64,000 bases of DNA from Octopus vulgaris (lineage: Eukaryota), in assembly GCA_951406725.2 (NCBI GenBank), contig OX597822.1, forward strand, positions 67,890,001 to 67,954,000, read 5' to 3'. This document shows positions 2,599-44,429 of this stretch, one piece after another. The notes beneath the pieces were generated by a model that was not told the DNA's origin, searched no databases, and worked only from the letters and a program-made list of their open reading frames with translations. Position numbers and translations under genes: made by a program. Within the stretch, counting starts at the first letter, position 1, and each line of letters begins with the position of its first letter.

Positions 2599-2690
2599 AA
2601 CTGTTACTCAGAGTTTCACGTTCCTGTTCGTCGGACGGTTATAATGAAAACGTCTGACGAACGGGAATGTGAAACTCTGAGTAACTTCTG
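2599..2690. ncRNA. Inverted pair of minimal hammerhead ribozyme motifs (PLE terminal-repeat type, family HH-A)
   Basis: Minus 2640-2599: aaccgt CCGACGA aca-ggaa-cgt GAAA ctctgag UA acagtt. Plus 2651-2685: cgt CUGACGA acg-ggaa-tgt GAAA ctctgag UA ac. The two arms are inverted repeats around a short spacer. Confidence 0.7.
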
Positions 2691-2826
2691 TCAAAGAGTG
2701 TAGGCTTGAAAGGTAAAAGACTTTCCCATTTTTTCTCAAGCGTCAAAGTAATACACTTGCTTGTTGTTCCTACGACTGTAATTATCTTTCCCTTTTCTAT
2801 AAAAGTGAATCGATCTATCTATACAT

Positions 2827-3010
2827 ATATATATATATATATATATATATATATATATATATATATATATATATATATATATATATATATATATATATAT
2901 ATATATATATATATATATACATACATACATACATACATACATACATACATACATACATACATACATACATACATACATACATACATACATACTTATAGAC
3001 ACACACACAC
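2827..3010. repeat. Compound (TA)n-(TACA)n-(CA)n microsatellite
   Basis: Seen directly. Confidence 0.97.
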
Positions 3011-4439
3011 AAAGTATGTACCTTTACTCACACTCGGACACAAATACACATGTGCCATGTGGCTGTGCTAGTATTGTAACACAGGATGCAATTAGTTTTT
3101 GTCTTATCTAAAATGATGTAGCAACCTTGGCAGTAAGTTCGGTATCTGCGTGTTTGTGTCTATGTGTGTATGTGTGTGTATACAACTATGAAATTGTTGT
3201 GCGGTTGTTACTGTTTCACAGCTACTAGAAGAATGTAATGGGGAGCAGCACTACAGCTATGTATTGTACGAGGTGAGGTGACTGTTGGTATTAATAGTAA
3301 GCTCGGAGTTCATATTTTAAAGGGGTAGCATCTGGTTTATGTACCAGAAGTTTAATCACATGGTTTAATCCACCTTACACACTTATTGCTCTAACATGAT
3401 ACATATCTATTCCAAATTTCATAGAGGCTTCGGCTCACTGTTTTGCAGCGTTTGTGACACATTTGGGAATACATTATCATTGTTCTTAATAATAGTATGA
3501 TGAGTATATCCTGGTGGAGAAGAGAGTAATTCAATCAGAGGAAGAGTTGAGTTTTATTCAGAATACATTAAGTTCATAGGGTTGCTATTGGTTTGATTTT
3601 TTCAGATATTTAGGTCGTATTAGTTTATTATGAATTTTATTTTGTGTGTTGTACTGTACGGCGATAACACGTGATAGATGAGAGGTGAATGCAAATGAGT
3701 GGAGGTATATGGGTGTCAGGGAAAGAGATTGGGTTAGAGATCAAGGAGGACTTAGCCAGGTGGTATTTGCTGTTCAGTTGTAACAGGAATATTTTTTGAA
3801 AACTTATAGCTTACAGGCTTCTGCATCCCATGAGAGCTTATCCCCTTTTCTGACAAAGTGCAATTATTAGGCGCCCATCTGTTTTATGACAATTTAGCAT
3901 TGGTGTGTGTATATATACATACATACATACTCTTTACAAATGTATGTCTATATACGTGTATGTATATAAATACAGATATATGTATATATATATATATATA
4001 TGTATGTATATAAAGATATATATATATATATATATATATATATATATATATATATATATATACATACATACATATATATATATACATAGTGATATAAATG
4101 ACGATTCGCCGTAACACTTTTAGCACTTTGTTCAACGTGGTGTAGATGGAAATAAAATAAAGAGATGCTTTACGCCATGGGATGAGCTGCTAGAAATAAC
4201 ATATCTTAATGACATAAATAAGAAAATGATAAAAGATACTGACGTGCATGTCATGTACACCACTTAAGAGACTTGGCGACCTCATTCTTCCACTGCAATA
4301 GAGTGCAATCGAGGGGGTCTTCGAGGAAGACGATACTACGAACGTTCCCTTGTGAAATTCTTTCAGCGCAGTAGGTGGTGAGGTGGTGGTGGTTGTGGTG
4401 GAGAGAAAGTGGAAAGAGAGGTGGAGAGAGAAAGAAAGA

Positions 4440-4630
4440 GCGTGAGTGAGTGAGTGAGTGAGTGAGTGAGTGAGTAAGTGAAAGAGAAAGAGCGGGAAAG
4501 AAAGAAAGAATGAATGAAAGACAGAAAGAAAGAAAGAAAGAAAGAAAGAAAGAAAGAAAGAAAGAAAGAAAGAAAGAAAGAAAGAAGGAAAGAAAGAAAA
4601 AAGAATGGAAGGAAGTAAGGAAGGAAGGAA
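4440..4630. repeat. (GTGA)n and (GAAA)n/(GGAA)n purine-rich microsatellites
   Basis: Seen directly. Confidence 0.95.
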
Positions 4631-5337
4631 AAAGGGAACAAACAAATAAAATAAAGGACCAAGTGCTCCCGGTATTGAACTGGACCAGCGTTTGGACAAC
4701 AATATATATTAATGGAGATTAATATAATCCGGACCGCGGTTAGACCGAACACGTTAACAAAATCTACATCGGCGATGTATGTGTGTATGCGTGTGTGTGT
4801 GTATGTGTGTGTGTGTGTGTGTGTGTGTGTGTGTGCGTGCGCGCGCGTGTGTGTGTATATGTGTGCTTAGTGCGCCCGCTTTACAACTACATAGTTTCAG
4901 GTTCAGTCTCACTGAGCGGGATCTTGGGCAAGTTTTTTCTGTTATACCTCGGCCTGACCAATTCCTTATAAGTGAATGTAGAGAATGTGTGGAAGCCTGT
5001 CGTATATATGTTTGTGAGTGCGTGTGTGGGGGGTGTATGGCGGTGTGGGCGTGGGTGCGTTGGAGTGCGTGTGTATATGTATACGTGTGTATATATATAT
5101 GTTTATGTGTGTATGTATGTATATATATATATATATATATATATATATATATATATATATATATATATGTATAAACAAGTCAAATTGCGATAAAATAAAT
5201 TAATCATTATCGCTGGTATTTCTAGCACAAGCCATATATTTTTCATATATCAGTACATTAAGGCGAAATATGTGCTTGAAACACAGAAGCTAGACAAATT
5301 TAGTGAAATGAAGATAAAAACATTTACTAACTCGGTT

Positions 5338-5413
5338 ACTCTTAGACTGCAGTTTCGTTCTTTTCAGCAATAAAGATAACTTATTTGCTCAGGGAGAATT
5401 CATCGGTAAGAGC
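5338..5413 (-). ncRNA. Type-I hammerhead ribozyme motif (family HH-B), U4C core, palindromic stem III
   Basis: Minus strand: GCUCUUA CCGAUGA a-UUCU..(hairpin)..AGAA-c GAAA CUGCAG UC UAAGAGU. 7-bp stem I, ACUGCAGU palindrome, GUC triplet, predicted cut between 5345 and 5344. Confidence 0.8.
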
Positions 5414-5516
5414 CCTGTTGTTCTGAGATATATATATATATATATATATATATATATATATATATATATATATATATATATATATACATACGCACAAACA
5501 CACACACACACACTTG

Positions 5517-5724
5517 CAGGAATACAGAAAAGTTACTTGCCTTAAAGGTGTCGTGAAAGGTCTGGTTGGAGACCCAAATTTCCGAGTTCTTTTTCAGGGC
5601 TTAGAAAAACTGAAGGACTGCTATAATAAGTGTGTAAATCGGAGAAGGGAATGTGTTGTATAAAATCTTAATTAACTGATCCCCCTGTATTTTCTTTTAT
5701 CCAAAGCCAGGAAATTTTTCAACA
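5517..5724 (+). mobile_element. About 205-bp mariner-derived MITE (degenerate copy)
   Basis: Alignable by eye to 36135-36346. Carries a remnant of the mariner C-terminus (GLEKLKD.YNKCV). It abuts and truncates the mariner to its right. Confidence 0.65.
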
Positions 5725-42290: not shown

Positions 42291-42327
42291 CCACTCTGTT
42301 GGGAAATAATATTAGTCAAATGACAAT

Positions 42328-42725
42328 GGCGGCGAGCTGTCAGAATCGTTCGCACGCCATCGAAATGTTTAGCTGTATTTTGTCTGCCGCTACGTTCTGA
42401 GTTCAAATTCCGCCGAGGTCGACTTTGCCTTTCATCCTTTCGGGGTCGATTGAATAAAGTACCAGTTAAGCACTGGGGTCGATATAATCGACTTAATCCG
42501 TTTGTCTGTCCTTGTTTGTCCTCTCTGTGTTTAGCCCCTTGTTGGTAGTAAAGAAATAGGTATTTCGTATGCCGCTACGTTCTGAGTTTAAATTCTGCCA
42601 AGGTCAGCTTTGCTTTTCATCCCTTCGGGGTCGATTAAATAAGTACCAATTGCGCACTGGGGTTGATGTAATCGACTTAATCCGTTTCCAAAATCCGAGG
42701 CCTTGTACTTCCAGTAGAAAAGAAT
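42328..42725 (+). mobile_element. Nested SINE family B dimer (tail 1 copy inside the head of a tail 2 copy)
   Basis: Junction AAAGAAATA|GGTATTTCG at about 42559. Confidence 0.85.
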
Positions 42726-43169
42726 ATTAGTCAAACGACGAATACTGCATTCATTTTTCTGGCAAGCATCATTGACAATATTTTGGTCTTGTTCTTTCGT
42801 AATCAGCGAAGTAAATCGTTGTCCGGTTTATAATGTAATTCAGTCTGTTAAAAATGATTTCATAATGACGGTAGACTTGACGTAAATCTTTCATCATACA
42901 ACCGTGTCAATATGAACATGTAAAATTTTCGGCAACTATCAGTATTATTTGTATATTATGCAAATGTAATCAAAATAGAAATAAAACTAACAAAAATAGG
43001 AACAAAAAAATTTATTCAAGTAATAACTCCTAGTAAGTAATACGGTGGACGAGATAAGCTTGGTAAGCATCAATATGCAGCATTGTTTAAGAACACTGGA
43101 CAGGTATTCTTCATCATTCAAAGGTAGTTAAGCACACGTGTATATATATATATATATATATATATATAT

Positions 43170-43575
43170 ATATATATATATAAACGGCAGTTTGTCTGTG
43201 CGTGTTTCTGTGTGTCTGTTTGCTTGTACCCTCACCCTGACCACGGCTTTCAACCGATTCTGATGAAACTTGACACACACATAGCCCAATGTCATAATTC
43301 AAAACTAACGCAGCGAAAATTTTGAAAAGTTCCCCCAGTTCTGAAAAAAAATCAATAAATTCGACATGGGGTCGAGAATCAGAAACACAAACCAAAATCT
43401 GTCTAGGGGACGCAACTCCACTTTTTTTTAACTCTCAAAACAAATTTACCATCATTTTTTCCCCATTTTTTTGCTATTTTTTGCTATTTTTAGAGAGTTT
43501 TTGCCTATAACTCTCTAAAAATGCTTTATAGTTACTTCCCTTACAAACCTGAGCAACGCCGGGCGATACCGCTAG
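43170..43575 (+). mobile_element. Non-autonomous Helitron in (TA)n
   Basis: The 3' end CCTGAGCAACGCCGGGCGATACCGCTAG|T is shared with 23173-23570; the 5' half differs. Confidence 0.82.
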
Positions 43576-43687
43576 TATATATATATATATATATATATAT
43601 ATATATATATATATAATGTGATCGCGTGTGTACTGTTGGCGATTTTTCCCCTCTGTCTTCCCTTCTCTGGATCTTTAATTCTCCTAT

Positions 43688-43722
43688 GTTTCCGACGAAG
43701 AGCCCCGCTCGAAACGTTAAAC
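43688..43722 (+). ncRNA. Minimal hammerhead motif (family HH-E), U4C core, extra A after A9
   Basis: GUUU CCGACGA A GAGC-ccc-GCUC GAAA CG UU AAAC. ACGU palindrome, GUU triplet. Confidence 0.78.
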
Positions 43723-44394
43723 CCTCCTTCTTTCCTTCTTTCCTGAGCATCCAATAATACTGTATTTGTTCCACGTCCTCGCGTTGTTGTGTATTTCATG
43801 TTTGGATTTTCCATCTTCCCCTCAGCTGGAGTCCTTTTTCCTTAACCCCCCCCTTTTTTGTTACACACGCGCGCACACATATACACACATTGCTTAAATA
43901 TATACATTACTCTTACACACATTCAATCTACTCGCCATTAATACTACCACGACACTGGACACACACACACACTACTACTCAACACACACCACGCTACATA
44001 CCCCCCCACCCCTTCCCCTCCCTCCCTTCCTCCTTCCTTCTTTTTCTTACTACTGACCACTGTCTGCTATGCCTACCACTGTCTCGCCCTACCTCACACG
44101 CCTACACACAGACGTACACACTAACACATACATATATTTTTTGTTATTCCTTGTTTTTTTATCTCGCCTCACACACACACATACACACACGCACACGCAC
44201 ACACTCACACATACACACACATCTGTTGCGTTACCAACCGTGTCTCCACTCTTTTGGCTTTAAAAACCTACTTTGCTCTTGTTATCGTAAACTTCCGCCT
44301 TTCACCATGTGTAACTCGTAAACACCAGTCGTTTTTTTCTCTATCTCCTGTTGCCCGCTTTGGGATCTTTCTTTCCTCTCTCTTCCTTCTTTAT

Positions 44395-44429
44395 GTTTCC
44401 GACGAAGAGCTCCGCTCGAAACGTCATAC
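44395..44429 (+). ncRNA. Second HH-E hammerhead motif
   Basis: GUUU CCGACGA A GAGC-ucc-GCUC GAAA CG UC AUAC. GUC triplet; lies in a diverged direct repeat of 43640-43810. Confidence 0.75.

Follow-up and report, generated by a model that had tools for sequence, protein, structure and literature searches.

The 64,000-nt stretch of the Octopus vulgaris contig OX597822.1 analysed here (assembly GCA_951406725.2, positions 67,890,001 to 67,954,000 of the forward strand; hereafter the window) includes eight hammerhead ribozyme motifs, six of which have the core CCGANGA instead of CUGANGA, that is, a C in place of the U at position 4 (U4C). CCGA is the state of the masters, or parent elements, of four of the five families to which these motifs belong, and not a product of decay in individual copies. 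The interpretation that we favour, and to which we assign a somewhat better than even probability, is that the eight motifs are terminal-repeat hammerheads of Penelope-like elements (PLEs) and their likely non-autonomous derivatives, and that U4C was fixed in several parent elements most likely as a tolerated, slower-cutting core rather than as a selected switch. This suggests that fast cutting may be dispensable for the spread of these elements.

The sequence C(T/C)GANGA...GAAA...TH is present at all eight places, with C3 at positions 2634(-), 2654(+), 5406(-), 10629(+), 10958(+), 38872(-), 43692(+) and 44399(+). The motifs belong to families A (2634, 2654 and 10629), B (5406), C (10958), D (43692 and 44399) and E (38872), and reading the core at these coordinates confirmed CCGA in six motifs from four families. 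A descriptor in which core position 4 was left free recovered six of the eight motifs, while 30 local shuffles of the window gave a mean of 0.1 and a maximum of 1; the motifs are therefore real, far beyond chance. The original prediction described them as eight complete motifs. All eight are present, but three are damaged: stem II of 2634 is broken with 2 bp left, 2654 keeps only 2 bp of stem I and is truncated at the junction with another repeat (family G), and stem III of 38872 has decayed to AUAGCGGU, the family E state being AUCGCGAU. Motif 44399 has a U.U mismatch at the second stem I pair. No hammerhead was found among the listed matches (150 of 371) of an Rfam search of the window, which are dominated by microsatellite look-alikes; the host is a microsatellite-rich animal genome of 2.8 Gb.

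Genome-wide searches were done with family patterns in which positions 4 and 5 were free, and the cores were tallied by eye from the listed matches, in DNA letters. CCGA was found in 78 of the first 100 of 1,775 matches to family A (the others being 9 CTGA, 9 CCAA and 4 other cores), in 94 of all 100 matches to family B (4 CTGA and 2 CCAA), in 72 of all 76 matches to family C (1 CTGA, 2 CCAA and 1 other), and in 71 of the first 100 of 9,470 matches to family D (24 CTGA, 3 CCAA and 2 other). Family E is canonical: of its 161 matches, the first 100 comprise 89 with CTGA and 3 with CCGA. A family from outside the window, F, has 42 CCGA, 41 CTGA and 10 CCAA in the first 100 of 1,010 matches, on two haplotypes. 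By these counts CCGA is the master state of families A, B, C and D; copy-specific decay is ruled out as its origin, and the claim that U4C is not random decay holds. The other core bases are intact at the family level in A, B, C, D and F, in which CCGA is the subfamily state. Two further CCGA matches, from a 1-Mb genome sample, returned only themselves in the genome search and were not counted as families.

CCGA contains a CpG, the decay of which yields CTGA and CCAA equally, as is observed in families A, B and C. Motif 2654, with CTGA, is likely such a CpG-decay revertant of CCGA. Family D shows an excess of CTGA (24 versus 3 CCAA, P=5e-5). D-CTGA is a separate subfamily with linked changes and 2,625 matches genome-wide, and the two D cores are on separate haplotypes (14 of 17 versus 1 of 30, P=3e-8). 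Three near-identical copies resembling family A (L251-L253) have CGGA (U4G) and a common, distinct upstream region, and represent a small subfamily or a duplication.

The features of the window that include or adjoin the motifs are the following:

2599..2642, minus strand: family A hammerhead with damaged stem II, CCGACGA, C3 at 2634, predicted cut after 2605; forms the left arm of two stubs arranged head to head.
2646..2687, plus strand: family A hammerhead, CTGACGA, C3 at 2654; likely CpG revertant of CCGA; stem I shortened at the family G junction.
2686..2768, plus strand: worn copy of family G (sister of D; genome-wide core CTGTNGA, A6U), overlooked in the original prediction.
5176..5427, minus strand: retrozyme-like family B, a copy of the 397-nt tandem unit truncated at its 5' end; CCGATGA, C3 at 5406, predicted cut after 5345; 43-nt stem II region; terminates in (TA)n.
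10501..10617, minus strand: inverted arm of a family A terminal repeat that lacks the core; its sequence is the complement of stem III and of the 3' strand in motif 10629.
10621..10697, plus strand: family A hammerhead, CCGACGA, C3 at 10629, predicted cut after 10658; its 3' tail reaches (TA)n.
10735..11317, plus strand: family C 3' end, CCGAAGA, C3 at 10958, predicted cut after 11076; 100-nt stem II region; stem III ACAGCUGU.
38665..39105 (limits approximate), minus strand: family E fold-back, canonical CTGATGA, C3 at 38872, H17 at 38840; stem III decayed.
43616..43790, plus strand: short family D element (D1) of about 200 nt, CCGACGA plus an extra A, C3 at 43692, predicted cut after 43718; stem III ACGU.
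43790..44521, plus strand: family D2, 5'-truncated 3' end of a young PLE with reverse transcriptase (RT) and C-terminal GIY-YIG; terminal-repeat CCGACGA, C3 at 44399, H17 at 44425.

D1 and D2 place two ACGU hammerheads on one strand, 707 nt apart. At window 43770-43800 the 3' end of D1 directly abuts D2, which is truncated at its 5' end, and the junction lacks a TA run; the junction of family A with family G at 2686 is comparable, and both junctions possibly reflect insertion into, or template switching between, terminal repeats.

The assignment to PLE-type minimal type-I hammerheads, already proposed, is supported by the order of the fold and the palindromic stem III and, in D2 and in the CUGA sister of family A, by the placement in terminal repeats. 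The D2 region (43790-44521) has 40 scored places in the genome at 98-100% identity, and pieces of an open reading frame (ORF) lie upstream in 7 of the 12 longer loci. In one of these, L330, the ORF is flanked by two terminal repeats, each with CCGACGA, and gives weak Pfam matches to RVT_1 and GIY-YIG, below gathering scores. The ORF starts about 440 nt downstream of the ribozyme, which for D2 rules out U4C as the loss of a UGA stop in an overlapping ORF. In D2 elements (L330, L321-L332) the ORF is separated from the terminal repeat by a 3' region of about 2.7 kb that is mostly CA-rich simple sequence. The sister of family A, named A' (locus L403; G000:C1:63048300-63052200, minus strand), is a 3.35-kb PLE unit with an open 727-amino acid ORF between two CUGA terminal repeats, to which family A is 75-91% identical. 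Its ribozyme has 3,861 matches, many paired 2-4 kb apart, and the element looks very young. The 727-amino acid protein has no Pfam match, and 1,765 relatives were found at E<=1e-20 among 8,000 scored. Judging from its motifs, it carries a GIY-YIG-like segment at its C-terminus. Such a segment is C-terminal in both ORFs found, unlike in Naiad-type PLEs, in which GIY-YIG precedes the RT and a canonical hammerhead is absent.

No ORF could be linked to families B, C or E or to any CCGA copy of A; for family C two long loci were inspected. The hallmarks of insertion by endonuclease-bearing PLEs (5' truncation, an inverted 5'-truncated copy, a one-sided tail and a (TA)n target) are seen across A, C, E and D2, a layout that has been described previously (PMC8557442; PMC4209133). 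Families C and E include inverted pairs, and C terminates in TA runs. Family B consists of 397-nt units in tandem arrays of up to seven with one hammerhead per unit, which is the layout of non-LTR retrozymes (tandem units of 150-450 nt with one hammerhead each). A 427-nt family B contig closing on itself was found in run X1, whose RNA nature is a guess; an array of tandem units would look alike. A further retrozyme-like family, with a canonical CUGA hammerhead in units of about 355 nt, is represented by a tandem array that occurs in both orientations (L151:3082-4512 and the opposite strand).

A second core variant, A6U, characterizes family G, which is sister to D and has a compensatory stem I pair. 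This family has 16,254 exact matches to the hammerhead scaffold with U6 and position 7 free, and exceeds every U4C family counted in copy number. When the first 100 of these matches were examined, position 6 was U in 96 and the canonical A in 2, and three had U4C as well. One family G copy lies after a PLE-like ORF (L192).

The motifs follow the type-I order of stem I, core, stem II, GAAA, stem III, NUH and stem I, and in the family consensuses the remaining core (C3, G5, A6, G8, A9, G12-A15, U16.1 and H17) is intact; the core column counts for family D come from 24 copies. Family E has the CUGANGA core, whereas A, B, C and D have C4 as the family state, and because C4 replaces U4 their motifs are variants rather than plain PLE minimal hammerheads. 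The claim that the stems differ and still pair is upheld by covariation: in 16 family A homologues, whose rows were chosen by a pairing descriptor and are thus biased towards a paired result, 94% of the cells are paired with 21 two-sided changes, including all four stem I pairs, and 0 of 500 shuffles scored as high. Many hammerheads, canonical ones among them, are mismatched at 10.1-11.1 (U.U, U.C, A.C or A.A) instead of having G-C, and in several the stem II region is 40-110 nt long (L404-L482, L151-L372). The palindromic stem III, decayed in the window copy of E, is suited to dimers. ViennaRNA predicts no hairpin for the stem III palindromes and self-duplexes of -7.8 to -11.1 kcal/mol, so that a dimer is favoured, and the predicted minimum-energy folds of the monomers differ from the hammerhead fold. 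Stem III had been regarded as too tight to fold in cis, which is strictly correct only for ACGU; the 8-9 nt palindromes could close hairpins of 2-3 bp, although none is predicted.

The unbiased 1-Mb sample, consisting of 100 stretches of 10 kb at round coordinates and scanned allowing one core change, gave 66 matches versus about 6.5 per shuffle. These are 32 canonical CUGA (7 of them in one tandem array), 7 U4C, 7 A6U and 20 others distributed over 11 changes. Only U4C and A6U recurred across loci; changes at C3, G5, G8, A9 and A13 showed no recurrence within clusters in this sample, and one single-copy core change followed genome-wide was private, with 22 of 23 copies canonical. The 39 intact CUGA or CCGA motifs correspond to about one per 26 kb and not to the one per 8 kb estimated from the window, and extrapolate to about 110,000 intact motifs genome-wide. 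Of the very many self-cleavage sites expected, most are solo or fold-back stubs without a same-strand partner; judging from sequence, the second arm of a fold-back runs antisense to the ribozyme and would base-pair with it. Same-strand pairs were found in full-length elements, in B arrays and in D1/D2, and few of the approximately 110,000 motifs are likely to be working cleavage sites.

The proposal of a selected lineage-wide variant did not survive this sample: with 32 CUGA versus 7 CCGA, a lineage-wide U4C is ruled out. Each CCGA family has a U4 relative, namely A' for A (the first 100 of its matches are all CTGA), D-CTGA for D, the L207 copy for C and a paralogue contig for B. Among 79 metagenome loci with A-clade ORFs, 64 have a motif, and the 60 distinct motifs comprise 57 CUGA, 1 CCGA and 2 others. 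Because of these motifs and the U4 relatives of every CCGA family, U4 is taken as ancestral. An unrelated metagenome contig has a perfectly paired CCGAAGA minimal hammerhead upstream of a PLE ORF (L408:2667), and U4C therefore also occurs outside this genome. The recurrence of U4C in unrelated families reflects independent origin, the PLE proteins behind A and D barely aligning (E=0.06), which places these lineages far apart. In a midpoint-rooted tree of 31 terminal-repeat rows and 139 columns, from which rows with tails under 95 nt were excluded, the CUGA A' clade is nested within the CCGA subfamilies of A (support 100/99). A' is thus likely a reversion of C to U in a master that later expanded more. 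There is no consistent amplification edge: CCGA leads in D, CUGA in the A clade, and F is even. The window itself is an extreme draw, with six of seven insertions from CCGA lineages (P=2e-4 at 18%), which is plausible for a window picked from many.

A tolerated core could have come about as follows. The element RT would start downstream of the ribozyme and use uncut RNA as template, and slow cleavage would then cost a master little; if slow cutting is cheap, position 4 would drift between U and C, from U to C by transition in masters and from C back to U through the CpG so created. The bases C3, G5, G8, A9, G12-A15 and UH would be kept constant by weak cleavage, probably with the help of dimer formation and protein, or by a need for the fold. 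All 30 family D copies picked by their 3' part extend through the whole ribozyme and the predicted cut site, so that D templates were uncut or rejoined, and copies beginning at the cut site, the candidate fossils of cleavage, are absent (0 of 30). Several points weigh against this interpretation. The word slower relies on other hammerheads (PMC3088659), for which mutations of the CUGA turn are also reported to give low activity (PMC9901934). Copies spanning the cut site were checked in D alone with no CUGA-family control, and the tree is short, with a midpoint root and long branches. U4C in this genome may be enriched beyond drift, as it accounts for 7 of 39 copies or 4 of 21 clusters here versus 1 of 58 elsewhere (P=0.007 and 0.016), in samples that are unlike (genome copies and assembled contigs of one clade); restriction to confirmed families, by dropping two clusters that proved to be single copies, leaves only P=0.15. 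Finally, CCGA has persisted across several divergent A subfamilies in spite of its CpG, which could reflect selection.

An alternative that we consider unlikely is positive selection for attenuation, with masters whose cores are weakened (U4C and A6U) leaving more copies: the ribozyme lies about 100 nt upstream of the element 3' end, and cutting would remove the part that primes insertion. In its broadest form, for which our expectation is equally low, hammerhead strength in PLEs would be an evolutionary dial, and masters that blunt the ribozyme (U4C at least five times, A6U once) would keep more full-length template and become the largest ribozyme-bearing families. The five or more independent fixations of U4C, the variant cores of the two largest families counted (G with A6U, and D, mostly U4C), the uncut templates of the 30 D copies and the additional stem I mismatch of the young D2 element are consistent with selected attenuation, and it has been noted that ribozyme loss may even aid proliferation (PMC8557442). 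Selected attenuation accords poorly with the CUGA subfamily A', likely a revertant, which outnumbers all CCGA subfamilies of A (3,861 versus 1,775), with the even split of F and with the majority of families that are still CUGA. Less probable again is that the variant cores are catalytically dead and that only the fold persists, either as a signal by which the PLE protein binds or is positioned, or simply by descent. The fixation of A6U in the very large family G, a natural A6C variant that cleaves at less than 0.1 per minute (PMC3088659), the predicted monomer folds, which are not hammerheads, and the failure of eight of nine Xenopus retrozyme dimers to cleave in vitro (10.64898/2026.07.22.740005) would agree with dead cores. 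A dead ribozyme is harder to reconcile with the sharing across loci of U4C and A6U alone, the other change that was followed being private, and with the tandem arrays of family B, a layout ascribed to cut and circularized templates (PMC7229834).

At the other extreme, the C4 cores could be fully active, rescued by an element protein or a compensating structure, so that U4C is silent. A PLE ribozyme of Anolis cleaves only with protein (PMC11167929), a published search pattern permits CYGANGA and reports C/U degeneracy at this position (PMC13481778), and the CCGA motif of L408 is perfectly paired. Nevertheless, we regard full rescue as improbable: no compensating change common to A, B, C, D and F is visible, U4C considerably lowers activity (PMC3088659), and C at position 4 is not free, because U is kept in 57 of 60 relatives. 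The suggestion that CCGA is an off state activated by C-to-U RNA editing is very improbable. By sequence logic one deamination would restore CUGA, but position 4 is already T in some genomic copies, and G5A copies match these in A, B, C and F; in A the 9 C4-to-T copies equal the 9 G5-to-A copies, the signature of CpG decay in DNA. Four possibly RNA runs gave C at the site in three, and the contig with T (X5) has it among five other changes and is best read as a paralogue; this test is a weak one, as contigs drop rare variants.

Whichever explanation applies, the role of the hammerhead in PLEs is still open in the literature (PMC8557442; PMC11167929), and this genome offers sister subfamilies that differ at one core base (A/A', the two D haplotypes and the two F haplotypes), to which the A6U family of more than 16,000 copies can be added. 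All were copied successfully, and these matched natural pairs make the role of the ribozyme in PLEs directly testable. Search patterns fixed on 'cuganga' (PMC8557442) undercount such motifs, as 14 of the 46 matches in the commonest classes of the 1-Mb sample are U4C or A6U. Should the evolutionary dial be real, a large fraction of the PLE ribozymes of animals would have escaped searches that insist on CUGANGA, and CUGA/CCGA sister subfamilies would be a natural test of the function of the ribozyme.

Elsewhere in the window, ORF pieces at 5672-6268 (minus strand), 22119-22454 (plus strand) and 61131-61442 (minus strand) resemble, by their motifs, remnants of mariner-type transposases. The broken ORF pieces at 30823-32202 look by eye like the end of a non-LTR retrotransposon, and similar pieces are found in L289 and L326.

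Previous work already covers the element class, the dimer-type ribozyme and, in a viroid, U4C (PMC3088659), and what is described here is not a new ribozyme or element class. In the literature searched, which excludes Lunse et al. (small PLE variants), a 1998 viroid paper, supplement 1 of PMC4209133 and the supplements of PMC8557442, there was no account of PLE or retrozyme families with U4C fixed, or of PLE families with A6U fixed. With the PLE hammerheads of Cervera and de la Pena 2014 (PMC4209133) our motifs share the type-I topology, the palindromic stem III, the location in terminal repeats, the many solo copies and the close pairs on opposite strands, and family D matches their consensus, down to the G10.1-C11.1 pair and the additional base that follows A9. 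In the part of that source considered, U4 is present in all rows of a 56-motif PLE alignment and U3-A8 is the sole core variant reported, unlike the U4C and A6U family states found here. The natural U4C hammerhead of the viroid has reduced activity in vitro while the viroid retains infectivity (PMC3088659); it is a single variant with tertiary contacts, whereas here U4C has been fixed repeatedly, in hundreds to thousands of copies with a dimer-type stem III. Family B resembles metazoan non-LTR retrozymes (PMC7229834; 10.64898/2026.07.22.740005) in its short tandem units with one type-I hammerhead each and no ORF seen, and differs from them (PMC7229834) in the U4C core and long stem II, and in being known here from DNA arrays. 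The closest counterpart with biochemical data is PAc, the Poseidon PLE of Anolis (PMC11167929), which has an RT with C-terminal GIY-YIG, a terminal-repeat hammerhead, AT-rich targets and insertion from uncut RNA, all features in which the elements described here appear to be alike. In PAc cleavage needs protein, unprocessed RNA is the main substrate, and catalytic mutants are without effect on insertion in vitro. The ORF of PAc starts inside the ribozyme and that of D2 about 440 nt downstream, and the PAc mutants were engineered at C3 and G8, whereas U4C is a change that occurred naturally in these elements.

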